Below, in pieces: positions 10,905 to 63,306 of a DNA stretch of 64,000 bases. The translations under genes and the position numbers were made by a program. Source of the stretch: a phage. The notes beneath the pieces are model-generated. The model was not told the origin of the DNA. It made no database searches and saw nothing but the letters and a program-made list of their open reading frames with translations. The number at the start of each line of letters is the position of its first letter. Position 1 is the first letter of the stretch. The stretch lies in sequence record PZ445439.1; one strand, written 5' to 3'.

Positions 10905-10973
10905 GTTATCGAGTTGGTGCCATTATATACATCGTTTTCTGATTGTGTTTTGTGTGCTTTCAAAATGAAGAAA

Positions 10974-10987
10974 GGGGCCGAAGCCCC
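10974..10987 (-). terminator. Terminator after hoc (minus strand)
   Basis: ggggc-cgaa-gcccc stem-loop; on minus strand followed by TTTCTTCATTTT. Confidence 0.65.
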
Positions 10988-10992
10988 TACGA

Positions 10993-12411
10993 TTATGGAT
11001 AGGTATAGATGATACCAGTTTCTAAAGCAGTTTTATGAATGATGTATCCATTGCGTGATTCTTGAACATCAACTTCTGGATAATCTTTCATCATCTTCTG
11101 GAGAGTATAACGATGCAGGTAGTATTTACTATCTGGGTCTTCAGTTTTCCAATCTTTACCTTCTTCGGTCATTTTTTGGATTTCATCCATAACCCACCAT
11201 CCGCACCAGATGTAAGCTGAAGTACGATGTGGAAGAGGATGAACATAAGGCAATTCACCTTCTGGTTCTGGAGCAACTTTATCAGTTACCTGAACTTGAC
11301 CTTCTGCTGTAACAGTTTTGCTATCATAATCAGTGGCGGTAACAGTTGCAGTAACTTCAATAGTTTGACTTCCAATAGATGAGGTGTCAACTGTATACAC
11401 ATTAGTCGATCCTTCTACAGGAGAAGAATCTTTCTTCCATGAATAGGTAATTTGCGCTTCTTCTGGAGCATCAGTCACATTAGCAGTAAATGTAGCCGAA
11501 GCATCTTGTTGAACATTAATAGAAGGAGGAGTCAATGTAATCTGTGGATTCATTGTCTTCTTATTAACTGTCAGTGATACTTCATTAGAAGTAACTTCTT
11601 TTGCATTATAATCATCAGCAGTTACTTGGGCTACGCATTTAATTCTTTTGACTCCATTTGTAGTTGGAGTATAGCTAAATGTAGAGTTAGTTTCTCCACT
11701 AACTTGAGAATCATCTACATACCATTGATACGTAGCAGACGCTCCAGCAGGTTGAGAAGCTAAGGCAGCCGTAAATTGAACTGGGGTTCCAATTACTCCA
11801 GCTGAAGGACTAGCAGGAGTTACTGCCAAGGTAGTTGTTTGGGTCTTTTTATTAACAGTCAGTGACACTTCATTAGAAGTAACGGTTTTTGCATCATAAT
11901 CTGTCGCGGTTACTTGAGCTACACACTTAATTGTTTTAACTCCGCTTGTGTCAGGAGTGTAATTGAATGTAGCGCTAGTTGCTTCGCTCACAGGAGAACC
12001 GTCAACGTGCCATTGATACGTAGCAGATGCGCCTGATGGCTGCGAAGCCAAAGCAGCGGTAAATTCAACAGGAGTTCCAATTACTCCTGCGGCAGGGCTA
12101 TCAGGAGTTACGACTAAGGTAGTTGTCTGTGTCTTATTTTGAACTGTGATAGTTGTAGTAGCTTCTGCTGTTTCAGCTTCACTGTCAGGAATAGTATTTG
12201 TTGCAACAACTTTAATTGTTTTTGTTCCAGCAGGTCCTTTTAACACATAACTAAAAGTTGCTTCAGCTCCATCCTGTGGAACATCGTCTACAGTCCAAGC
12301 ATAGGTAATAGTTCCACCTCCAGTTTCACCACTGGGTGTAGCAGTAAACTGCTGAGTCTGATCTATAACTCCAGTAGGTGTTTTAGGAGTTATATCAACT
12401 GTAAAAGCCAT
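10993..12411 (-). CDS. hoc: Highly immunogenic outer capsid protein Hoc, 472 aa, with an extra tandemly duplicated Ig-like domain relative to T4 Hoc (376 aa)
   Basis: N- and C-terminal regions match recalled T4 Hoc; internal 96-aa unit present twice. Confidence 0.92.
   Translation of the reverse strand: MAFTVDITPKTPTGVIDQTQQFTATPSGETGGGTITYAWTVDDVPQDGAEATFSYVLKGPAGTKTIKVVATNTIPDSEAETAEATTTITVQNKTQTTTLVVTPDSPAAGVIGTPVEFTAALASQPSGASATYQWHVDGSPVSEATSATFNYTPDTSGVKTIKCVAQVTATDYDAKTVTSNEVSLTVNKKTQTTTLAVTPASPSAGVIGTPVQFTAALASQPAGASATYQWYVDDSQVSGETNSTFSYTPTTNGVKRIKCVAQVTADDYNAKEVTSNEVSLTVNKKTMNPQITLTPPSINVQQDASATFTANVTDAPEEAQITYSWKKDSSPVEGSTNVYTVDTSSIGSQTIEVTATVTATDYDSKTVTAEGQVQVTDKVAPEPEGELPYVHPLPHRTSAYIWCGWWVMDEIQKMTEEGKDWKTEDPDSKYYLHRYTLQKMMKDYPEVDVQESRNGYIIHKTALETGIIYTYP
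11557..12136 (-). repeat. Tandem direct repeat, 2 x 288 bp, within hoc (duplicated Ig-like domain); about 75-80 percent nucleotide identity by eye
   Basis: Two consecutive 288-bp blocks align by eye; encoded 96-aa units are highly similar. Confidence 0.85.
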
Positions 12412-12420
12412 AAGTTATCC

Positions 12421-13101
12421 TTATTTTAATGTTACGAAAGAAGAATTGCGTGTTTCGCGAATTAGAACTGATCCGTCGCGGTTAATGTAGTAAATTAAGC
12501 TAAATAAAGTTTGGTGTGCCGACGCATGTTCAAAACTAGTTGGGTGAGATTTCCAATCCGGAGTTTCAGCAATCCACTGGTAAATCCACCAAGGAACAGT
12601 ACAGAATCCTGGATTTTTTCCAATCAGCTGAAGATTAGGACTAAAGTTTTCCGGAAGAGTAAATACAGACGGCTTTTCAGATTCAATAATCTCAGCTACA
12701 GCCTGTTCGAACTTTTCTTCAACAAAAGGAGTGTCTTCAATCAAAACATCAGTATTTTCAGGAATTTTATCCATTTCTACTACTTCAATTTTAATGTCAG
12801 ATTTAACCGGAGAATCAATCAGAAGTGCTGCTTCTGGATTGACTTCTTCATCGTCATATTTTAATCCCTCTGCGGCATCAGCAGCATCAATTAAGTCTTT
12901 AATAGATAACCCATCAGTCTCTGGCATAGGTTCACTAGCGAGCTTCTGGAGGGCTTCTTCAATATCAATAACGATATTATCAAAAGATTTATTCTTTTTG
13001 ACCTTTATACCAAACTGTTCAGCATATTCAGCTAATTTAGCTTTAGCTTCTTTATTATCATCAAGAGCCTTCAGCTCTGCAATATAATCTTTATCTATCA
13101 T
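12421..13101 (-). CDS. inh: Putative Inh, inhibitor of prohead protease (226 aa)
   Basis: ORF track; position between hoc and uvsW as in T4; size fits. Confidence 0.65.
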   Translation of the reverse strand: MIDKDYIAELKALDDNKEAKAKLAEYAEQFGIKVKKNKSFDNIVIDIEEALQKLASEPMPETDGLSIKDLIDAADAAEGLKYDDEEVNPEAALLIDSPVKSDIKIEVVEMDKIPENTDVLIEDTPFVEEKFEQAVAEIIESEKPSVFTLPENFSPNLQLIGKNPGFCTVPWWIYQWIAETPDWKSHPTSFEHASAHQTLFSLIYYINRDGSVLIRETRNSSFVTLK

Positions 13102-13114
13102 AATATTTCCTCAG

Positions 13115-13122
13115 TATAAATA
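13115..13122 (+). promoter_or_regulatory. Late promoter TATAAATA for uvsW
   Basis: Exact motif about 30 nt upstream of uvsW ATG. Confidence 0.65.
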
Positions 13123-13151
13123 TAGATATATTTATTACATGGTATTTAGAC

Positions 13152-14663
13152 ATGACTGACATTAAAGTACATTTTTATGATTTTAGTCACGTGAGAATTG
13201 ATTGTGAAGAAAGTACATTTCATGAACTCCGTGATTTCTTTAGCTTTGAAGCTGATGGGTATCGTTTTAATCCGAAGTACAAATATGGTCACTGGGATGG
13301 ACGAATCCGTCTTTTAGATTATAATCGACTTCTTCCATTTGGATTAGTCGGGCAAATTAAAAAGTTCTGCGATAACTTTGGCTATAAAGCCTGGATTGAC
13401 CCACAAATTAACGAAAAGGAAGAACTGTCAAGAAAAGATTTTGATGAATGGCTTTCTAAATTAGAAATCTATTCAGGAAATAAAAGAATTGAACCGCATT
13501 GGTATCAAAAAGATGCAGTGTTCGAAGGATTAGTTAATCGTCGTAGAATTCTTAATCTTCCAACATCCGCAGGTAAATCTTTAATTCAGGCTTTGCTTGC
13601 TCGATATTATTTGGAAAATTATGAAGGTAAAATTCTTATCATTGTTCCAACAACTGCCTTAACAACTCAGATGGCTGATGACTTTGTTGACTATCGTTTA
13701 TTCAGTCATGCAATGATAAAGAAAATCGGTGGTGGAGCATCAAAAGATGATAAATATAAAAATGATGCACCAGTCGTTGTTGGTACATGGCAAACTGTAG
13801 TAAAACAACCGAAAGAATGGTTCTCGCAATTTGGTATGATGATGAATGATGAATGTCATCTTGCTACAGGAAAAAGTATTTCATCTATCATATCTGGTTT
13901 AAATAACTGTATGTTTAAATTTGGTTTGTCTGGTTCATTACGTGATGGCAAAGCCAATATCATGCAGTATGTTGGAATGTTTGGTGAAATATTTAAGCCA
14001 GTAACGACTTCTAAATTAATGGAAGATGGACAAGTAACTGAGCTAAAAATTAATAGTATTTTTCTTCGTTATCCTGATGAGTTCACTACTAAATTAAAGG
14101 GAAAAACTTACCAAGAAGAAATAAAAATTATTACTGGGCTCAGTAAAAGAAATAAATGGATCGCTAAATTAGCTATTAAGCTTGCGCAAAAAGATGAAAA
14201 CGCTTTTGTCATGTTTAAACATGTATCGCATGGTAAAGCTATTTTCGATTTAATTAAAAATGAATACGATAAAGTTTATTACGTATCAGGGGAAGTTGAT
14301 ACCGAAACACGCAATATAATGAAAACCTTAGCTGAAAACGGTAAAGGAATAATTATAGTAGCTAGTTATGGTGTATTTTCTACTGGTATTTCAGTTAAAA
14401 ATCTGCATCACGTTGTTTTAGCACATGGTGTTAAATCTAAAATTATCGTATTGCAAACAATAGGTCGCGTATTACGTAAGCATGGTTCTAAAACAATCGC
14501 AACAGTCTGGGATCTTATAGATGATTGTGGTGTTAAGCCAAAATCTGCTAATACTAAAAAGAAATATGTTCATTTGAACTATCTTTTAAAACACGGTATT
14601 GATCGCATTCAGCGTTATGCAGATGAAAAATTTAATTACGTAATGAAAACAGTTAATTTATAA
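13152..14663 (+). CDS. uvsW: UvsW RNA-DNA and DNA-DNA helicase (503 aa)
   Basis: ORF track; SF2 helicase motifs; T4 UvsW size; late promoter upstream. Confidence 0.92.
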   Translation: MTDIKVHFYDFSHVRIDCEESTFHELRDFFSFEADGYRFNPKYKYGHWDGRIRLLDYNRLLPFGLVGQIKKFCDNFGYKAWIDPQINEKEELSRKDFDEWLSKLEIYSGNKRIEPHWYQKDAVFEGLVNRRRILNLPTSAGKSLIQALLARYYLENYEGKILIIVPTTALTTQMADDFVDYRLFSHAMIKKIGGGASKDDKYKNDAPVVVGTWQTVVKQPKEWFSQFGMMMNDECHLATGKSISSIISGLNNCMFKFGLSGSLRDGKANIMQYVGMFGEIFKPVTTSKLMEDGQVTELKINSIFLRYPDEFTTKLKGKTYQEEIKIITGLSKRNKWIAKLAIKLAQKDENAFVMFKHVSHGKAIFDLIKNEYDKVYYVSGEVDTETRNIMKTLAENGKGIIIVASYGVFSTGISVKNLHHVVLAHGVKSKIIVLQTIGRVLRKHGSKTIATVWDLIDDCGVKPKSANTKKKYVHLNYLLKHGIDRIQRYADEKFNYVMKTVNL

Positions 14664-15167: not shown

Positions 15168-15175
15168 TATTTATA
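15168..15175 (-). promoter_or_regulatory. Late promoter TATAAATA (minus strand) upstream of the small uvsY.-2-position ORF
   Basis: Plus-strand tatttata = minus-strand TATAAATA, 26 nt upstream of the ATG at 15142. Confidence 0.55.
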
Positions 15176-52163: not shown

Positions 52164-55100
52164 ATGGCCGACATCAAACGTAAGTTCAGAGCCGAAGACG
52201 GTCTGGACGCCGGTGGCGACAAGATTGTTAACGTAGCATTAGCCGACCGTACAGTAGGTACTGATGGCGTAAACGTTGACTTCCTGGTACAAGAAAACAC
52301 CGTTCAAGTATATGATTCTACGCGTGGATATAACAAAGGATTTGTTGTTCTTTATGACAACCGTTTATATCAAGCAATAAATGATATCGTGTCTCCTTCC
52401 GGGGCATTTAACCTTTTACAATGGCGTGCAGTTCGTACCGATGCACAATGGATAACTGTCGCTTCTGGGACTTATCAACTTTCTTCAGGTGAATCGATTT
52501 CGGTTAACACTGGTGCCGGCAATGATATGGTTTTCACGTTGCCAAATACGCCGGTTGATGGTGATACTGTTGTTTTGGCTGATATTGGTGGAAGAACCGG
52601 GACAGTTAAAGTACAGATTAACGCGTCTGTGCAGAGTATTTTAAACTTTAGAGGTGAACAAGTTCGTACAGTTTTAATGACGCGCCCACGTTCACAACTA
52701 TTGTTTGTGTTTAGTAATCGTTTGTGGCAGATGTATATTACCGATTATGGTAAAGAATCAATCACTGTTACACCTGCGACACCATATCAAGCACAAGCAA
52801 ATGATTTTATCGTTCGTCGTTTTACTAGTGCAGCACCAATCAACATTACACTTCCACGTAATGCTAACAATGGTGATATAATCAGCCTAGTCGATTTAGA
52901 TAGATTAAACCCACTATATCATACAATTGTTAAAACATTTGATGATACAACGTCTATTGGTGAAGTCGGGACTCATATTGCCGAAGGCAGAAATGACTCT
53001 GACGCGTTTTTTGTTTTTGATGCTGCAAATAGTTTATGGCGTATATGGGAAGGCGACCAGAAATCGCGTCTTCGTATTATCCGTGCGGATTCAAATATTC
53101 GTCCAAATGAAGAAGTTCTTATTTTTGGCACAAATAACGCTACAGCCGGAACTATTAATCTTACGCTGCCTTCCGGAATTTTGAGTGGTGACACTGTTAA
53201 AATTTCAATGAACTACATGCGTAAAGGCCAAACAGTAAAAATTAAAGCTGCCGAAGGTGATACAATTGCTTCTTCTGTTGCATTGCTTCAGTTCCCTAAA
53301 CGTTCTGAATATCCACCTGATGCTCAATGGGTCTCTGTTACTGAACTAGAATTCAATGGCACTACTTCATATGTTCCTGTATTAAAATTAGCATATATCG
53401 AAGACACCGTTGCTGGTACACGTTATTGGGTTGTTCAACAAAACGTCCCAACTGTAGAACGTGTTGATGCTGGAACTGATGCTACACGAGCTCGTTTAGG
53501 TGTTATTGCTCTTGCTACTCAAGCGCAAGCAAATGTTGATTTAGAGAATACTCCAGCTAAAGAAGTTGCTATTACTCCGGAAACATTGGCAAATCGTACA
53601 GCAACTGAAGCTCGACGTGGTATCGCTAAAATTGCCACAACAGCACAAGTTAACCAGAATTCCACAGCATCATTTGTGGACGATACTATTGTTACGCCTA
53701 AAAAACTAAATGAGCGTACAGCAACTGAAACTCGTCGCGGTCTTGCTGAAATTGCTACTCAGGCCGAAACCGATGCCGGTCTTGATGACACAACGATTAT
53801 TACACCTAAGAAATTGCAGGCACGTCAGGGCTCTGAAACACTATCTGGTATAGTTAAATATGTATCAACTACTTCTGCTACTCCTGCTGAAACTCGTGGA
53901 ACCGCAGGCACTAACGTTTATAATAAAACCGTAAATAATTTAACTATTTCTCCTAAAGCCCTTGACCAATATAAAGCAACTTATGCTCAACAAGGTGCGG
54001 TAATTTTAGCTGTTGATAGTGAAGTAATTGCTGGTCAATCACAAGCAGGTTATTCTCATGCTGTAGTAACTCCTGAAACACTACATAAGAAAACTTCTAC
54101 TGATGGACGTATTGGTTTAATTGAAATTGCTACGCAAGCAGAAACTAATGCTGGGACTGATTATACACGCGCAGTAACACCTAAGACGTTAAATGATAGG
54201 AAAGCTACGGAAGGATTATCCGGCATAGCCGAACTTGCTACGCAAGTTGAATTTGATACTGGAACTGATGATACTCGTATCTCGACTCCACTGAAAATTA
54301 AAACTCATTTTGATTCTTCTGACCGTACCAGTGTTAATTCTGATTCCGGACTTATTGAAGAAGGAACCTTGTGGAACCATTATACTCTTGATATTTCTAA
54401 AGCAAATGAAACACAACGCGGTACACTTCGCGTAGCGACACAGGCAGAATCTAATGCAGGAACTTTAGATGATGTTCTTATTACTCCTAAAAAGCTTTTA
54501 GGGACTAAGTCCACTGAAACGTCTGAAGGCGTAATTAAGGTTGCTACTCAGGCTGAAACTGTAACAGGAACTTCTGCTAATACTGCTGTATCTCCTAAGA
54601 ATTTAAAATGGATTGTCCAGAAAGAACCAACATGGGCTGCTACTACAGCAATTCGCGGATTCGTTAAAACTTCATCCGGTTCTATTACATTCGTTGGTAA
54701 TGATACAGTCGGTTCTACACAACCTTTAGAATCATATGAGAAAAATAGCTATGCAGTATCACCATATGAATTAAACCGTGTACTTGCTAACTATTTGCCA
54801 TTGAAAGCTAAAGCCGTAGATAGTAATTTATTAGATGGCCTAGATTCATCTCAGTTCATTCGTAGGGACATTGCACAGACGGTTAATGGTTCACTATCCT
54901 TAACCCAACAAACGAATCTGAGTGCCCCTCTTGTATCAACTAGTACTGCTACGTTTGGTGGTTCAGTTTCGGCAAATAGTACATTAACTATTTCTAACTC
55001 TGGAACAGCTACTCGTCTGATTTTTGAAAAAGGACCTCAAACTGGAACTAACCCAGCACAGACGATGACTATCAGAGTTTGGGGAAATGAATTTGGCGGT

Positions 55101-56039
55101 GGTTCAGATACAACACGTTCTACTGTATTTGAAGTTGGCGATGAAACATCTAATCACTTTTATTCTCAACGTAATAAAGCCGGGAATATAACGTTTAGTA
55201 TCAATGGTACTGTGATGCCAATAAATGTTAACGCTTCAGGCACGTTAAATGCGAATGGCGTTGCAACATTTGGTCGTTCAGTTACAGCCAATGGCGAATT
55301 CATTAGCAAGTCTGCAAATGCTTTCAGAGCAATTAGTGGTGATTACGGATTCTTTATTCGCAATGATGCTACTAACACCTATTTTATGCTTACTGCATCA
55401 GGTGACCAGACTGGCGGATTTAATGGATTACGTCCTTTAGCTATTAACAATGCATCTGGTCAAGTAACGATTGGTGAAAGCTTAATCATTGCTAAAGGTG
55501 CTACTATAAATTCAGGTGGTTTAACAGTTAACTCAAGAATTCGTTCTCAGGGTTCTAAAACTGCTGATTTATACACTCGTGCTCCTACTGCTGATACAGT
55601 CGGATTCTGGTCAATTGACGTCAATGATTCAGCTACATATAACCAATTCCCGGGTTATTTTAAAATGGTTGAAAAAACTAATGAAGTGACTGGACTTCCA
55701 TACTTAGAGCGCGGTGAAGAAGTTAAATCTCCTGGTACGCTGACTCAGTTTGGTAACACACTTGATTCGCTTTACCAAGATTGGATTACTTATCCAACGA
55801 CGCCAGAAGCGCGTACCACTCGCTGGACACGTACATGGCAGAAAACCAAAAACTCTTGGTCAAGTTTTGTTCAGGTATTTGATGGAGGTAACCCTCCTCA
55901 GCCGTCTGATATCGGTGCTTTACCATCTGATAATGCTACAATGGGGAATCTTACTATTCGTGATTTCTTACGAATTGGTAATGTTCGCATTGTTCCTGAC
56001 CCAGTGAATAAAACTGTTAAATTTGAATGGGTTGAATAA
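52164..56039 (+). CDS. 34: Long tail fibre proximal subunit gp34 (1291 aa)
   Basis: ORF track; size and N-terminus as T4 gp34; late promoter upstream. Confidence 0.95.
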   Translation: MADIKRKFRAEDGLDAGGDKIVNVALADRTVGTDGVNVDFLVQENTVQVYDSTRGYNKGFVVLYDNRLYQAINDIVSPSGAFNLLQWRAVRTDAQWITVASGTYQLSSGESISVNTGAGNDMVFTLPNTPVDGDTVVLADIGGRTGTVKVQINASVQSILNFRGEQVRTVLMTRPRSQLLFVFSNRLWQMYITDYGKESITVTPATPYQAQANDFIVRRFTSAAPINITLPRNANNGDIISLVDLDRLNPLYHTIVKTFDDTTSIGEVGTHIAEGRNDSDAFFVFDAANSLWRIWEGDQKSRLRIIRADSNIRPNEEVLIFGTNNATAGTINLTLPSGILSGDTVKISMNYMRKGQTVKIKAAEGDTIASSVALLQFPKRSEYPPDAQWVSVTELEFNGTTSYVPVLKLAYIEDTVAGTRYWVVQQNVPTVERVDAGTDATRARLGVIALATQAQANVDLENTPAKEVAITPETLANRTATEARRGIAKIATTAQVNQNSTASFVDDTIVTPKKLNERTATETRRGLAEIATQAETDAGLDDTTIITPKKLQARQGSETLSGIVKYVSTTSATPAETRGTAGTNVYNKTVNNLTISPKALDQYKATYAQQGAVILAVDSEVIAGQSQAGYSHAVVTPETLHKKTSTDGRIGLIEIATQAETNAGTDYTRAVTPKTLNDRKATEGLSGIAELATQVEFDTGTDDTRISTPLKIKTHFDSSDRTSVNSDSGLIEEGTLWNHYTLDISKANETQRGTLRVATQAESNAGTLDDVLITPKKLLGTKSTETSEGVIKVATQAETVTGTSANTAVSPKNLKWIVQKEPTWAATTAIRGFVKTSSGSITFVGNDTVGSTQPLESYEKNSYAVSPYELNRVLANYLPLKAKAVDSNLLDGLDSSQFIRRDIAQTVNGSLSLTQQTNLSAPLVSTSTATFGGSVSANSTLTISNSGTATRLIFEKGPQTGTNPAQTMTIRVWGNEFGGGSDTTRSTVFEVGDETSNHFYSQRNKAGNITFSINGTVMPINVNASGTLNANGVATFGRSVTANGEFISKSANAFRAISGDYGFFIRNDATNTYFMLTASGDQTGGFNGLRPLAINNASGQVTIGESLIIAKGATINSGGLTVNSRIRSQGSKTADLYTRAPTADTVGFWSIDVNDSATYNQFPGYFKMVEKTNEVTGLPYLERGEEVKSPGTLTQFGNTLDSLYQDWITYPTTPEARTTRWTRTWQKTKNSWSSFVQVFDGGNPPQPSDIGALPSDNATMGNLTIRDFLRIGNVRIVPDPVNKTVKFEWVE

Positions 56040-56047
56040 GAGGTATT

Positions 56048-57163
56048 ATGGAAAAATTTATGGCAGAGTTTGGACAAGGATATGTCCAAACGCCATTTTT
56101 ATCGGAAAGTAATTCAGTAAGATATAAAATAAGTATAGCGGGTTCTTGCCCGCTTTCTACCTCAGGACCATATGTTAAATTTCAGGATAATCCTGTAGGA
56201 AGTCAAACATTTAGCGCAGGTCTTCATTTAAGAGTTTTTGACCCTTCAACAGGAGCATTGGTTGATAGTAAGTCATATGCTTTTTCGACTTCAAATGATA
56301 CTACATCAGCGGCTTTTGTTAGTTTCATGAATTCTTTTTCAAGCAATAGACTTGTTGCTATATTAACTAGCGGAAAGGTTAATTTTCCTCCTGAAGTAGT
56401 ATCTTGGCTAAGAGCTGCAGGAACGTCTGCTTTTCCATCTGATTCTATATTGTCAAGATTCGACGTATCATATGCTGCTTTTTATACTTCTTCTAAAAGA
56501 GCTATCGCACTAGAACATGTTAAACTGAGTAATAGAAAAAGCACAGATGATTATCAAACTATTTTAGATGTTGTATTTGACAGTTTAGAAGATGTTGGAG
56601 CTACCGGGTTTCCAAGAAGAACGTATGAAAGCGTTGAGCAATTTATGTCAGCGGTTGGTGGAACTAATAACGAAATTGCGAGATTACCAACTTCATCCGC
56701 GATAAGTAAACTATCTGACTACAATTTAATTCCTGGCGATGTTCTTTATCTTAAAGCACAACTATACGCTGATGCTGATTTACTTGCTCTTGGAACTACG
56801 AATATATCCATTCGTTTTTATAATGCATCTAATGGATATATTTCCTCGACACAAGCTGAGTTTACCGGAAAAGCTGGGTCTTGGGAATTAAAAGAAGATT
56901 ATGTAGTTGTTCCAGAAAACGCCGTGGGATTTACGATATATGCGCAAAGAACTGCAAAAGCAGGTCAAGGTGGTATGAGAAATTTAAGCTTTTCTGAAGT
57001 GTCAAGAAATGGAGGTATTTCGAAACCTGCTGAGTTTGGCGTCAACGGCATTCGAGTTAATTATGTCTGTGAATCCGCTTCACCTCCGGATATAATGGTA
57101 CTTCCTACGCAATCATCGTCTAAAACTGGTAAAGTATTTGGGCAAGAATTTAGAGAAGTTTAA
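56048..57163 (+). CDS. 35: Long tail fibre hinge protein gp35 (371 aa)
   Basis: ORF track; size and synteny. Confidence 0.9.
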   Translation: MEKFMAEFGQGYVQTPFLSESNSVRYKISIAGSCPLSTSGPYVKFQDNPVGSQTFSAGLHLRVFDPSTGALVDSKSYAFSTSNDTTSAAFVSFMNSFSSNRLVAILTSGKVNFPPEVVSWLRAAGTSAFPSDSILSRFDVSYAAFYTSSKRAIALEHVKLSNRKSTDDYQTILDVVFDSLEDVGATGFPRRTYESVEQFMSAVGGTNNEIARLPTSSAISKLSDYNLIPGDVLYLKAQLYADADLLALGTTNISIRFYNASNGYISSTQAEFTGKAGSWELKEDYVVVPENAVGFTIYAQRTAKAGQGGMRNLSFSEVSRNGGISKPAEFGVNGIRVNYVCESASPPDIMVLPTQSSSKTGKVFGQEFREV

Positions 57164-57168
57164 ATTGA

Positions 57169-57190
57169 GGGAGCCTTCGGGTTCCCTTTT
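57169..57190 (+). terminator. Rho-independent terminator after gene 35
   Basis: gggagcc-ttcg-ggttccc with one G-U pair, followed by tttttcttt. Confidence 0.7.
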
Positions 57191-57194
57191 TCTT

Positions 57195-57202
57195 TATAAA
57201 TA
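57195..57202 (+). promoter_or_regulatory. Late promoter TATAAATA for gene 36
   Basis: Exact motif about 24 nt upstream of ATG. Confidence 0.7.
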
Positions 57203-57225
57203 CTATTAAAATAAAGGGGCATACA

Positions 57226-57888
57226 ATGGCTGATTTAAAAGTAGGTTCAACAACTGGAGGCTCTGTCATTTGGCATCAAGGAAATTTTCCATTGAATCCA
57301 GCCGGTGACGATGTACTCTATAAATCATTTAAAATATATTCAGAATACAATAAACCACAAGCAGCTGATAACGATTTCGTTTCTAAAGCTAATGGTGGTA
57401 CTTACGCCGCGACTGTTCGATTTAATGGAGGCGTACATGTTCCTACTATAGGTAGTAGTCAACAGTGCGGCGTTTATCCAGGCAACGGTGATGCAGCTAC
57501 TTTTGCTATGGCAAATATTGACATCGTTTCGTGGAATGGTATTGGTTTTAAATCATCACAAGGTTCAGCAGACCGAACTGTTGTAATTAATGCACGTAAT
57601 GGTGATATTAGTACAAAAGGCGTCGTGACAGCAGTAGGTCAAATAAGAAGTAATGCAGTTTCTCCTGTAGCAGCGAATGACCTAACTCGCAAAGATTATG
57701 TTGATGGAGCAATAAATACTGTTACAGCAAATGCGAACTCTAGAGTGTTACGATCTGGCGACACTATGACGGGTAACTTAACCGCACCAAACTTTTTTTC
57801 GCAGAATCCTGCATCTCAACCTTCACACGTTCCACGATTTGACCAAATCGTAATTAAGGATTCTGTTCAAGATTTCGGCTATTATTAA
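57226..57888 (+). CDS. 36: Long tail fibre distal connector gp36 (220 aa)
   Basis: ORF track; size and synteny; late promoter upstream. Confidence 0.9.
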
Positions 57889-57896
57889 GAGGACTT

Positions 57897-60800
57897 ATGG
57901 CTACTTTAAAACAAATACAATTTAAAAGAAGCAAAACCGCAGGTGCACGTCCTGCTGCTTCAGTATTAGCCGAAGGTGAATTGGCTATAAACTTAAAAGA
58001 TAGAACACTTTTTACTAAAGATGATTCAGGAAATATCATCGACTTAAGCATTTCTGCTGGCGGTAGTATCAGTGGAAATATCACTCAAACTGGTGATTAT
58101 TTACAAAATGGAACATATAATCTTAATGGAAACCAGTTTGTTTATGCAGGAAAATATATTGAATTTTTACCTAAAACTGCTGGTAATGGTGCTTGGGCAA
58201 ATCAACACCTAAATAAAGCTCCTATTTTTACGGATTTAAGTTCAACTACTTCCGTTTCAGAATACCATCCGCTAATTAAGCAGCGTTATAAAGATGGGAC
58301 TTTTTCAGCGGGTACATTGGTTGCTGAAGGAAGTTTTAAGATTCATTACATCAATGAATCTGGGGATTCGAAATATTGGACTTTTAATCGTAATGGTAAT
58401 TTCCAAGTTGACACAGGCGATTTATTTGTCAGCAAAGGTAATATTTCCGCTTCAGGCAATATTAATTCAGCTACTGGAATAGTTTCTGCTCCACAGATTA
58501 ATACAAAAACCATAGTTTTTGATACAAAGGCATTCGGACAATACGATTCGCAGTCATTAGTTCAATATGTTTATCCTGGAACAGGTGAAGAAAATGGTAT
58601 AAACTATCTTCGTAAAGTTCGAGCTAAATCAGGCGGAACTATTTACCATGAAATCGCTTCAGCTCAAACCGGTAAGAATGATGAAATTTCTTGGTGGACT
58701 GGAAATTCGCTTACTACTAAATTAATGGGTCTTCGTAATGATGGCGCAATGGTATTACGTCGTTCACTTGCTATTGGCACAATTACCGCTGATGAAAATA
58801 CTAACAACTATGGTTCTCCTACTCCAATGGGAGAAAGATATATTGCTTTGGGTGATGCTGCAACCGGTTTAAAATATATTAAGCAAGGTGTTTATGATTT
58901 AGTAGGTAATTGGAATTCTGTTGCTTCTATTACTCCTGACAGTTTCCGCAGTACTCGCAAAGGTTTATTTGGACGTTCAGAAGACCAAGGCGGAACCTGG
59001 ACAATGCCTGGAACGAACGCTGCTCTCTTGTCTGTTCAAACCCAGGCAGATGTGAATAACGCAGGCGATGGTCAAACCCACATTGGATATAATTCTGGCG
59101 GTAAATTTTCCCATTATTTCCGCGGTAAAGGCCAAACCAACATTAATACGCAGGAAGGTATGGAAATTAACCCTGGTATTTTGAAATTGGTAACTGGCTC
59201 TAATAACGTACAGTTTTATGCTAATGGAACAGTATCTTCAATACAAAGAATTAAATTTGATAACGGATTAGTTCTTACTGGTGCTAGACCTGATGGTATT
59301 CAACTTGATGCGCCTACATCAGTAGATGGCACTAAAACTATACTGTGGGCTGGTGGTACTCGCGCAGGTCAGAATAAAAGTTATGTATCTATTAAAGCGT
59401 GGGGTAATTCATTTAACGCATCTGGCGATCGCACTCGTGAATCAGTTTTTGAAGTAGCTGATGGACAAGGTTATTATTTTTATGCGCAACGTATAGCTCC
59501 TGCACCAGGTTCAACAACTGGAGTAATTCAATTTAGAGTTGCTGGAGCATTATTAACCGGTGGTGGTATTACATCATCTGGTTCTATTGTTACTGAATCA
59601 AGTTTAGTTGCAAATAATGGATTATCTGTAAATGGTCAGGCTAAATTTGGTGGAACGGCAGATGCATTAAGAATTTGGAACGCTGAATATGGTGCTATTT
59701 TCCGTCGTTCAGAAGCATCATTACATATTATCCCGACTCCTAAAGATGCTGGTGAAAGTGGTGGAATAAGTAATCTCCGCCCGCTTAGTATTAGCCTTAA
59801 TAATGGTATGGTGCAAATGCGTCATTCTGTTACGTTAGGCGATGATGGTGCAGGCGGTAATATGGTGACGGTTGATAATGATTCTAAAGTTATGGTAATG
59901 ACGACTAATAGCCGTATTAGTCCTAACTTCCGTATGCAAATTGGACAGTCGTCTTATATTGATGCTGAATGTACTAATGCTGTTAGACCGGCTGGCGCAG
60001 GTTCTTTTGCTTCGCAAAATAATGAAAATGTTCGTGCTCCGTTCTATATGAATATTGATAGAACTGATACTAGTACATATGTTCCAATTGTTAAACAGAG
60101 ATATGTGCAAAATAATAGTTGCTATTCTATCGGTACTTTAATTAATGGTGGTAATTTTAGAGTTCATTATCATGAAGGTGGTGATGGCGGTTCTACTGGC
60201 GCGATTATAAAGGATTTAGGTTGGGAATTTAATAAAAACGGTGATTTTTACTCTCCTGGTAAATTAGGTGCTGGTAATGTTCGTATTGGTACTGATGGTA
60301 ATATCACGGGGGGTTCATTACCTAACTTTGCTAACTTGAACTTGACATTAGATCGTAAAGTCAATACCCGAATGGTTTCTTATTCAGGTACTGGCGGTTG
60401 GTACAAATTAGCCACTGTAACAATGCCACAATCCACTTCAACCGTCACATTCGAAATTGCTGGTGGTAATGGCTATAATGTTAACACCCCACACCAATGC
60501 GTTACTTCGAAAATTGTTTTAAGAACTTCGAACAATAACCCGAAAGGTATTAATGCTGTTGTTTGGTCGATGGATACCGATCAGGGTATTAAGAATGTTG
60601 CAACGGTTAATACATCAGGCGATGTTTATGACATCTATGTAAACGTTGGTACTTATGCTCAGGCGTTAGCAGTTTCTTATTATGCTACTCCTAATGCTAC
60701 CATTAACCAGGTATTTGCAACGGACCAACCGGGTGCAACAGAAACTGCGGTTGAACTTCCTGAGACGGCTATTCAAGGACAGGTTGCTAGTGTTCTGAAT

Positions 60801-61805
60801 AACTTGGCTCTTACCCCGAACGGTGTAAAACGTTATGAAGCCGATTCTGAAATAGCTATTAATAGCCAAACTGGCATTCGTATTAGAAGCAACAGCGATA
60901 AAACTGGTTCTGTTGCTACAATGCTACGAAATGATGGTGGTAGTTTTTATATTCTGTTTACAGATAAAAATGCCACCGATGGCGCAGCAACTGTTAATGG
61001 TGATTGGAATAGTAAACGTCCTTTCGCAATTAACTTAACAACCGGCGAAGTGCTAATGAATAACGGCATAGCTGTTCGCAGCGCTGCTTTATTCTATAAT
61101 AGCATAAACGTCAAAGATAATGGTTCTATTAACTTTGATAAGTCCGGAGCTAACCCAAGAAATATGAGAATATTTCATGCTGGCGATGGCACTCGTGGTA
61201 ATCGCATTGAAATTGCCGATGAAACTAACTATATTGCTTACTTCCAAAAATTACCTGGTGGTCAAAACCAAGTTTCATTCAATAGCGCTACACTTTCTGG
61301 ATTAACACAGTGTAATCAATTTGGTGTTAACACAACAAACGCACTTGGTGGAAACAGTATAACATTTGGTGATACCGATACTGGTATTAAGCAAAATGGC
61401 GATGGATTATTAGACATATATGCGAACAACGTACAAGTGTTCCGTTTCCAAAACGGTGATTTGTACTCATACAAAAATATAAATGCTCCAAACGTTTATA
61501 TTCGTTCTGATATTCGTTTAAAATCCAACTTTAAGCCTATCGAAAATGCACTTGATAAAGTTGAAAAACTTAACGGTGTCATTTACGATAAGGCTGAATA
61601 CATCGGTGGAGATGCAATTGAAACTGAAGCGGGTATTGTGGCTCAAACGTTACAAGACGTTTTACCAGAAGCTGTCCGTGAAACAGAAGACAGTAAGGGT
61701 AATAAAATACTCACTGTTTCTTCTCAAGCCCAGATTGCTCTTCTAGTTGAAGCTGTGAAAACACTTTCTGCTCGTGTAAAAGAACTCGAATCTAAACTTA
61801 TGTAA
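57897..61805 (+). CDS. 37: Long tail fibre distal subunit gp37 (1302 aa), T2/T6 type with C-terminal intramolecular chaperone (autoproteolytic) domain
   Basis: ORF track; C-terminal ~100 aa (...[29 protein letters not shown]...ELESKLM) resembles the chaperone domain of fibre/endosialidase proteins. Confidence 0.9.
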
Positions 61806-61806
61806 A

Positions 61807-61824
61807 AGAGGGCTTCGTCCCTCT
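61807..61824 (+). other. Stem-loop after gene 37 (weak terminator candidate)
   Basis: agaggg-cttcgt-ccctct; T-run begins 5 nt downstream. Confidence 0.4.
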
Positions 61825-61835
61825 AAGGATTTTTA

Positions 61836-62618
61836 ATGGCAATTGTAGGTGTTCCTGGCTGGATTGGTGAATCTGCCGTGAATGAAACTGGACAACGTTG
61901 GATGGATGCTGCAATGAGAGCAGTCCGTGTTTCAGTTCCTGGTTGGATGAGCTCAATGGCTGGGCAATCTAAAGAGATTCATTATAGCATTGGTGCTAGT
62001 AATTCTTATAATAAAGACACATTAATAAACTGGATAAAAGCCCAAGGAAGTACTCCTGTTGTTATTACTATTACAGGAAATATTGTTTCTCAATCTACTG
62101 GTGTTCCGTGTCTGGATTTCCCTAGTTCGTTGACCAATGCATATGTTACGTTGATCATTAACTCTGGCGTGACTGTCTATGGACGTGGGGGTAATGGTGG
62201 TAGTAACGCTGCCGGTGCTGCTGGTGGTAACGCAATTAATAATGGCATCGGTACACGCTTGCGTATTACGAATAATGGTGCAATCGCTGGCGGCGGCGGC
62301 GGCGGTGGCGGCGGTAACAGGGGTAAACTAATATTTGGTGGTGGCGGTGGTCGCCCATTCGGTGCTGGTGGGTCTTCCTCTCATATGAGTTCCGGTGCAA
62401 CTGCTGGTACTATTTCCGCTCCTGGTAAAGGATCTGTTGGTGAGGGGTCTCTTAGCGCATATACAGGCGGTGCGGGCGGTAACGTTGGTGCTGCTGGAGG
62501 AAGATGTAATACCCAAGGTAACGGTACAGAATATAACGGCGGCGCAGCTGGTAAAGCTGTTACCGGTAATGCTCCAACTTGGACTAAAGTTGGTACAATA
62601 TATGGTTCAAGAGTATAA
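61836..62618 (+). CDS. 38: gp38 receptor-recognising adhesin, T2/T6 type with glycine-rich motifs (260 aa)
   Basis: ORF track; conserved N-terminal region plus C-terminal poly-Gly segments separated by variable stretches. Confidence 0.88.
   Translation: MAIVGVPGWIGESAVNETGQRWMDAAMRAVRVSVPGWMSSMAGQSKEIHYSIGASNSYNKDTLINWIKAQGSTPVVITITGNIVSQSTGVPCLDFPSSLTNAYVTLIINSGVTVYGRGGNGGSNAAGAAGGNAINNGIGTRLRITNNGAIAGGGGGGGGGNRGKLIFGGGGGRPFGAGGSSSHMSSGATAGTISAPGKGSVGEGSLSAYTGGAGGNVGAAGGRCNTQGNGTEYNGGAAGKAVTGNAPTWTKVGTIYGSRV
62289..62315 (+). repeat. (GGC/GGT)9 trinucleotide tract encoding nine consecutive glycines in gp38
   Basis: Direct reading of ggcggcggcggcggcggtggcggcggt. Confidence 0.9.
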
Positions 62619-62649
62619 TTTTGAATAAATATCCTTAAAAGGAGGGTCT

Positions 62650-63306
62650 ATGGCAGCACCTAGAATATCATTTTCGCCCTCTGATATTCTGTTTGGTGTT
62701 CTAGATCGCTTGTTCAAAGATAACGCTACCGGGAAAGTTCTTGCTTCCCGGGTAGCTGTCGTAATTCTTTTGTTTATAATGGCGATTGTTTGGTATAGGG
62801 GAGATAGTTTCTTTGAGTACTATAAGCAATCAAAGTATGAAACATACAGTGAAATTATTGAAAAGGAAAGAAATGCACGCTTTGAATCTGTCGCCCTGGA
62901 ACAACTCCAGATAGTTCATATATCATCTGAGGCAGACTTTAGTGCGGTGTATTCTTTCCGCCCTAAAAACTTAAACTATTTTGTCGATATTATAGCATAT
63001 GAAGGAAAATTACCTTCAACAATAAGTGAAAAATCACTTGGAGGATATCCTGTTGATAAAACTATGGATGAATATACAGTTCATTTAAATGGACGTCATT
63101 ATTATTCTGACTCAAAATTTGCTTTTTTACCAACTAAAAAGCCTACTCCCGAAATAAACTACATGTACAGTTGTCCATATTTTAATTTGGATAATATCTA
63201 TGCTGGAACGATAACCATGTACTGGTATAGAAATGATCATATAAGTAATGACCGCCTTGAATCAATATGTTCACAGGCGGCCAGAATATTAGGAAGGGCT
63301 AAATAA
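62650..63306 (+). CDS. t: Holin T (218 aa)
   Basis: ORF track; near-identical to recalled T4 holin; single N-terminal transmembrane segment. Confidence 0.95.
   Translation: MAAPRISFSPSDILFGVLDRLFKDNATGKVLASRVAVVILLFIMAIVWYRGDSFFEYYKQSKYETYSEIIEKERNARFESVALEQLQIVHISSEADFSAVYSFRPKNLNYFVDIIAYEGKLPSTISEKSLGGYPVDKTMDEYTVHLNGRHYYSDSKFAFLPTKKPTPEINYMYSCPYFNLDNIYAGTITMYWYRNDHISNDRLESICSQAARILGRAK

Follow-up and report, generated by a model that had tools for sequence, protein, structure and literature searches.

The question raised by this locus is whether the additional Ig-like domain of its head decoration protein Hoc arose by a recent duplication in this phage, or whether it belongs to older variation that is shared with related phages. 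The window, that is, the whole stretch of 64,000 nt of record PZ445439.1 that was analysed, contains hoc as an open reading frame on the minus strand, an orientation that a preliminary description made from the letters alone did not give. That description had put the product at 472 aa compared with 376 aa in T4, and the open reading frame at 10993..12411 bears this out. T4 Hoc (PDB 5vf3_Z) matched the protein with E=6e-221 (phmmer, PDB) in two stretches, namely query 1-110 to T4 1-110 and query 188-472 to T4 92-376, leaving one 96-aa unit unmatched. The flanks were rightly said to resemble T4 Hoc, since they align with it, and the protein does have one Ig-like domain more than T4 Hoc, which is of the D2 type. 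PHROG 1149 "Hoc-like head decoration" matched at 1e-145, the N-terminal string of Ig-like domains was recovered by Pfam, AF2 and Foldseek, and the C-terminal domain is homologous to T4 Hoc 281-376 by phmmer as well as by phrog_21694 and phrog_1149. We consider it very probable that the gene is an ordinary Tequatrovirus hoc in its common two-unit allele, with the order domain 1 (D1), unit A, unit B, domain 3 (D3) and capsid-binding domain, in which A and B are old and cassette-like. The parts of the gene are as follows.

10993..12411, minus strand: hoc coding sequence, an open reading frame of 472 aa plus stop codon, encoding four Ig-like domains and a C-terminal capsid-binding domain

12133..12411, minus strand: Ig-like domain 1 (aa 1-93), aligning with T4 Hoc 1-93; beta strands in the AF2 model, pLDDT 85-93

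11845..12132, minus strand: unit A (aa 94-189), a D2-type Ig-like domain with no T4 Hoc counterpart; core motif SPVSEATSAT; AF2 pLDDT 88-96

11557..11844, minus strand: unit B (aa 190-285), a D2-type Ig-like domain and the counterpart of T4 Hoc domain 2; core motif SQVSGETNST

11284..11556, minus strand: Ig-like domain 3 in T4 numbering (aa 286-376), aligning with T4 Hoc 190-280

10993..11283, minus strand: C-terminal capsid-binding domain (aa 377-472) plus stop codon, near-identical to T4 Hoc 281-376

10973..10988, minus strand: terminator-like hairpin AGGGGCTTCGGCCCCT followed by a T-rich tail, beginning 5 nt past the hoc stop codon

Within these parts the best Pfam PKD stretch of unit B covers aa 197-253, Pfam Ig_3/I-set models cover aa 289-373 of domain 3 (AF2 pLDDT ~87-93), and phrog_21694 (Hoc-like) matches the C-terminal domain at 1.4e-41. 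T4 Hoc (376 aa; X14869, PDB 5vf3/8t1x) thus belongs to the same family and has the same D1, D3 and capsid-binding domain (aa 281-376, compared with 377-472 in the window), and its D2 corresponds to unit B with 90% nucleotide identity. It differs in having a single D2-type unit, whereas the window protein has an extra A-type unit between D1 and B.

The genomic setting is that of a T4-type late-gene cluster, in which hoc lies between inh and 24.3 and is followed by a terminator. Directly upstream of hoc the window has an ORF of 226 aa; the other neighbours are two small ORFs, one that is RNA-ligase-2-like and, on the opposite strand, a helicase-like ORF of 503 aa. In JoYop, RB27, wV7 and teqdroes the genes at the equivalent positions bear the names 24.2, 24.3, hoc, inh and uvsW, and the order rnlB/24.2/24.3-hoc-inh-uvsW is that of T4-type records. 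In the first 25 kb of the window, identity with phage JoYop is 97.3%; for teqdroes, the second-closest genome, the value is 96.6%. A putative terminator is annotated in the T4 record X14869 at the place corresponding to the hairpin. No exact match to the T4 late-promoter box TATAAATA was found on the minus strand in 12412-13200, upstream of inh-hoc, and the nearest minus-strand match is at 15168. Across the whole window 19 such boxes were observed compared with 8 expected. The exact 472-aa sequence has been deposited as QXV83382.1 of Escherichia phage PaulHMueller under the name "capsid whiskers protein", and Hoc proteins in other records are called "PKD domain protein", "capsid and scaffold protein" or even "endonuclease"; "capsid whiskers protein" and names of this kind are misleading for Hoc.

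Tandem Repeats Finder detected in hoc a repeat with a period of 288 nt and 2.0 copies (11555-12135, 79% matches, score 731), which is the only tandem repeat with a score of at least 60 across the 64-kb window. Two consecutive in-frame 288-bp blocks are present at 11557-11844 and 11845-12132, so that the coordinates of the preliminary description were right within 4 nt. The same description took the blocks to encode nearly identical units that had arisen by a recent tandem duplication. If this were so, the duplication would have occurred within the gene in this phage lineage, and the copies would be near-identical and prone to unequal recombination. The period of exactly 288 nt, in frame, and the protein-identical ends of the units (TQTTTL... 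and ...TSNEVSLTVNKK) would agree with such an event. However, it is at these ends only, the parts quoted in the preliminary description, that the units are identical. The two 288-nt copies share 78% of their nucleotides and 77/96 amino acids (80%), the longest exact tract common to both is 18 nt, and dS between them is 0.97 with a dN/dS of 0.12 (Nei-Gojobori).

Comparison with relatives points in the same direction. Between A and B of the same gene, in four phages (the window, RB30, JoYop and IMG/VR contig L002), nucleotide identity was 76-78%, dS 0.86-1.15 and dN/dS 0.10-0.18, whereas unit A of the window was 90-95% identical to the A units of JoYop, RB30 and L002 (dS 0.14-0.27, dN/dS 0.18-0.36) and unit B was 92-97% identical to the B units of the same three phages (dS 0.12-0.23, dN/dS 0.08-0.33; all by Nei-Gojobori). 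Unit A was 92-95% identical in nucleotides to three units, namely A of RB30, A of JoYop and the only D2 of teqdroes, and 80% identical to D2 of T4; unit B was 90% identical to T4 D2 and 93-97% identical to B of JoYop and RB30. The units therefore group by position and not by genome. Because of this grouping, and because the dS between A and B is far above the 0.12-0.27 found between orthologous units, the split of A and B is several-fold older than the divergence of the phages compared. Both units are under purifying selection. Each unit resembles the unit at the same position in RB30, JoYop and L002 more than it resembles its own neighbour, the arrangement is present in relatives, where the A-B order recurs in many phages, and the same allele had been sequenced earlier in RB30, all of which makes a recent duplication in this lineage extremely improbable. 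The words "recent" and "nearly identical" have to be given up for this gene.

One could also suppose that the two copies were produced during assembly and that the real genome contains one unit. Mis-assembly of one unit cannot yield copies that differ at 22% of their positions. Furthermore, the identical 472-aa protein has been deposited for PaulHMueller, and 166 other members of its protein cluster come from independent assemblies, to which the separate RB30 hoc record is to be added. On the grounds of this divergence and of the recurrence in many independent assemblies we see practically no room for an artefact.

The two-unit arrangement is widespread. A megablast search with the hoc gene matched 660 phage records, and the best 60 of the 660 all contain a gapless 1419-nt hoc. 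In a sample of 60 rows spaced evenly along the ranking, a gene of 1419-1425 nt was found in 19/60 and one of ~1131 nt in ~32/60; these alleles were counted from the record spans, as the search joins non-collinear pieces and one-unit genes also show 100% query coverage. Based on the 19/60 in this sample, the two-unit allele would be carried by roughly one third of the related phage records. Among the best 120 of 889 protein clusters, which were ranked by similarity to the query so that proportions are rough, 81 contain proteins of 376-378 aa, 30 of 468-472 aa and 9 of 567-570 aa, and the 30 of 468-472 aa together comprise at least 444 sequences. The window protein falls into a 90% cluster of 167 members together with the proteins of RB30 (AAM52483), slur02/04, Sf23 and teqhal. 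The A-B arrangement is also found in RB27, RB30, JoYop, wV7, slur02/04, Sf23 and many others. A comparison of Hoc length across T-even phages, which had been proposed as a check, gave alleles of 376, 472 and 568-570 aa that correspond to one, two and three units.

The window gene has the same build as that of RB30, with two 96-aa D2-type units between D1 and D3, the first with an A-core and the second with a B-core. The Hoc proteins of RB30 and RB27 (AY101183 / AAM52483, KM607000) likewise have 472 aa in the order D1-A-B-D3-C-terminal domain and align with the window protein without gaps at 94% protein and ~94% DNA identity; they differ from it at ~6% of residues, most of the differences falling in unit A and towards the C-terminal end of D1. 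The GenBank record AY101183 of RB30 hoc already contains a repeat_region with a note that attributes the additional immunoglobulin-like domain to an intragenic repeat. The extra domain is therefore not new, being an already annotated, common and widely shared variant. Our literature search for a five-domain Hoc or for the RB30 repeat returned this GenBank note and general papers on Hoc, the results being mostly "post hoc" noise. As a discovery the locus carries little weight, since GenBank already covers the gene, its extra domain and the derivation of that domain from an intragenic repeat, and the variable number of Ig domains has been published. A patch in domain 1, making up its 3' third, stands out by its divergence: 12124-12219 (gene nt 193-288, aa 65-96, containing TNTIPDSEAETAEA) shows only 79-81% DNA identity to all four five-domain relatives compared, whereas most other parts of hoc are 90-99% identical to the same four. 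Judging from this comparison, the patch may be hypervariable locally, or it may have been brought in by recombination from an allele that is not in the sample.

How the D2-type units are distributed over phages was assessed by splitting 117 Hoc proteins into units and typing the core at unit positions 47-54. Two-unit genes had the cores A-B in 21/29 cases, including the window. Among the one-unit genes an A core was found in 57/80 and a B core in 21/80, and the three-unit genes, 8 in total, were mostly of the form A-B-x. A third core, SLVDGETTTT, was seen in several of the three-unit genes, in their last unit. Escherichia phages UGKSEcP1 and UGKSEcP2 may serve as examples, since their Hoc proteins (568-570 aa) have the same flanks and the same 96-aa unit TQTTTL...SLTVNKK as the window and differ from it in having three tandem units instead of two, the third with the core SLVDGETTTT. 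Unit heads and tails occurred in many combinations across the typed proteins. Across the 29 two-unit proteins no residue passed a strict threshold for separating A from B cleanly, and the core motif (47-54) alone was reliable, which is explained by the shuffling of heads and tails. Single units show this as well. That of teqdroes is 92% identical to A of the window and 80% to B, and that of T4 is 90% identical to B and 80% to A, with the head and core of B and an A-like tail (TDYDALS). Codons for the same residue in A and B differ at 30/95 positions at the unit ends compared with 102/205 in the interior, as counted over five gene pairs that are related and non-independent, and this is suggestive of homogenised unit joints. 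The prediction that the repeat is a hotspot for expansion and contraction by unequal recombination is supported at the level of the population, where one-, two- and three-unit alleles exist, but is weakened for this genome, in which the copies have diverged by 22% and have no exact common tract of more than 18 nt.

The likely history is as follows. Units A and B are old paralogous, or formerly allelic, versions of the Ig-like module known as domain 2 in T4, both maintained by purifying selection. The D2-type array behaves as a cassette of one, two or three units in T-even phage populations, probably through homologous and out-of-register recombination between co-infecting phages via the conserved unit ends. 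The pattern of one, two and three units fits long-term recombination of this kind among co-infecting phages, both in register and out of register (unequal, allelic). With respect to the order of events, a duplication followed by divergence, the fusion of two diverged alleles, and one-unit genes that are deletions are each a possibility. In the second case, the two-unit allele would have been formed by out-of-register recombination between co-infecting one-unit phages of the A type and the B type, and the join might be younger than dS suggests while still predating the spread of the allele. One-unit genes with an A core (teqdroes, L005) and with a B core (T4, L003) both circulate, heads and tails of units are freely reshuffled, and D2 of T4 combines the head and core of B with an A-like tail, which a simple deletion from A-B cannot give. 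However, deletions from an A-B ancestor would explain the one-unit genes equally well, with a crossover in the conserved head leaving B and one in the tail leaving A, and we regard the fusion as a serious candidate that falls short of being the favoured one.

A stronger reading would be that the D2-type units form a maintained cassette system with at least three core types (A: SPV.EAT.AT, B: SQV.GETN.T, C: SLVDGETTTT) and ends that are alike even at synonymous sites, in which co-infecting phages swap, add or drop modules in one to three copies and balancing or niche-specific selection keeps several architectures in circulation. We put this forward as a speculative proposal that is rather unlikely to hold in full. 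If it were true, selection might act for example on the targets of adherence or on escape from antibodies. A systematic description of such cassette behaviour in hoc was not found in the literature searched, in which variation of the domain number itself is known. The pattern of one, two and three units with shuffled unit types would be suited to a small comparative study of the evolution of domain cassettes.

Two further observations were made among the related genes. In a 567-aa Hoc (P0046, 24 member sequences) D1 and the anchor resemble those of T4 and a single unit of the A type is present, and the three domains in the middle (ENNSAVAVTP…, ANSSTLKITP…) show no sequence relationship to the D2 units; this protein looks like a mosaic that includes parts of a distant hoc. 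In the RefSeq genome of T6 (L028, NC_054907.1) hoc is found at 301-1432 with a length of 1132 nt and is divided into two overlapping CDS, which, set against the 1131-nt gene of T4, amounts to a frameshift. This split reflects either a real pseudogene or a sequencing error.

With regard to structure, the Pfam models PKD, PKD_4, Ig_2 and Ig_3 matched across aa 113-373. AF2, based on an alignment of 39 sequences, predicted four all-beta domains over residues 1-376 with block pLDDT values of 85-96; the C-terminal domain was modelled with low confidence (pLDDT 39-66) and no reading was taken from it. The best Foldseek matches in the PDB were strings of four Ig domains, e.g. Dscam1 and ICAM-5 D1-D4, with low TM-scores as for flexible strings. 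The low scores of the whole model would be due to differing angles between the domains, and the Foldseek result supports a string of Ig domains only, with no specific relative. In T4, Hoc occupies the middle of gp23 hexamers in monomeric form (PMC10385173) and its C-terminal domain binds the capsid (Fokine et al. 2023, PMC10385173). By its near-identity to the T4 anchor, the C-terminal domain of the window protein would be expected to hold a single Hoc monomer in place at each hexamer centre. From there the four Ig-like domains would project as a fibre that is longer than that of T4 by about one Ig domain, an extra length that we estimate at ~4-5 nm from the 180 Å and four domains of T4 Hoc. 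With the additional domain the fibre might gain a further module that adheres weakly to glycans or to cell surfaces. Hoc length varies among T-even phages that are otherwise 96-97% identical, and this variation could bear on how the phages adhere to mucus or cell surfaces, on immunogenicity and on the suitability of Hoc as a display scaffold.

It might be argued that the extra domain is neutral baggage or that the gene is decaying, as Hoc is non-essential in the laboratory and dispensable for growth (PMC3012670) and hoc of the T6 RefSeq record is split by a frameshift. The window gene, however, has an intact reading frame, dN/dS is ~0.12 between its units and 0.08-0.36 between orthologues, both units fold with high AF2 confidence, and the allele persists in hundreds of isolates. 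Neutrality or decay is very improbable on these grounds.

Changes in domain number are also found in Hoc proteins farther away. Among 650 homologues Hoc consists of a conserved C-terminal anchor and a variable string of one to ten Ig-like domains, the ten being found in the 1174-aa Hoc of Serratia phage Muldoon (PMC10385173), and a natural Hoc without domain 3 is known from PhiPNJ-9 (PMC11853027). A distant T4-like group (~50% identity) in our comparison contains Hoc proteins of 282, 377 and 471-472 aa. In the longest of these (L006 2047-2624, L007 1999-2562; 471-472 aa) the extra domain is a duplicate of a D3-type domain with 72-77% identity, and the shortest (L012, 282 aa) is without D2. Like the window protein, the Hoc proteins of Muldoon, PhiPNJ-9, L006/L007 and L012 combine a C-terminal anchor with a variable Ig-like string, but other domains were gained or lost in them in independent events, and identity is ~50% or less. 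As the distant group has duplicated a D3-type domain or lost D2, the gain and loss of domains in hoc is recurrent and independent.

At the other end of the window, a row of ORFs of 1291, 371, 220, 1302, 260 and 218 aa was observed on the plus strand at 52164-63306. By order and size they are candidates for the long-tail-fibre genes 34-37 and, after these, a T2-type gp38 adhesin; their gp37 would then be longer than that of T4.
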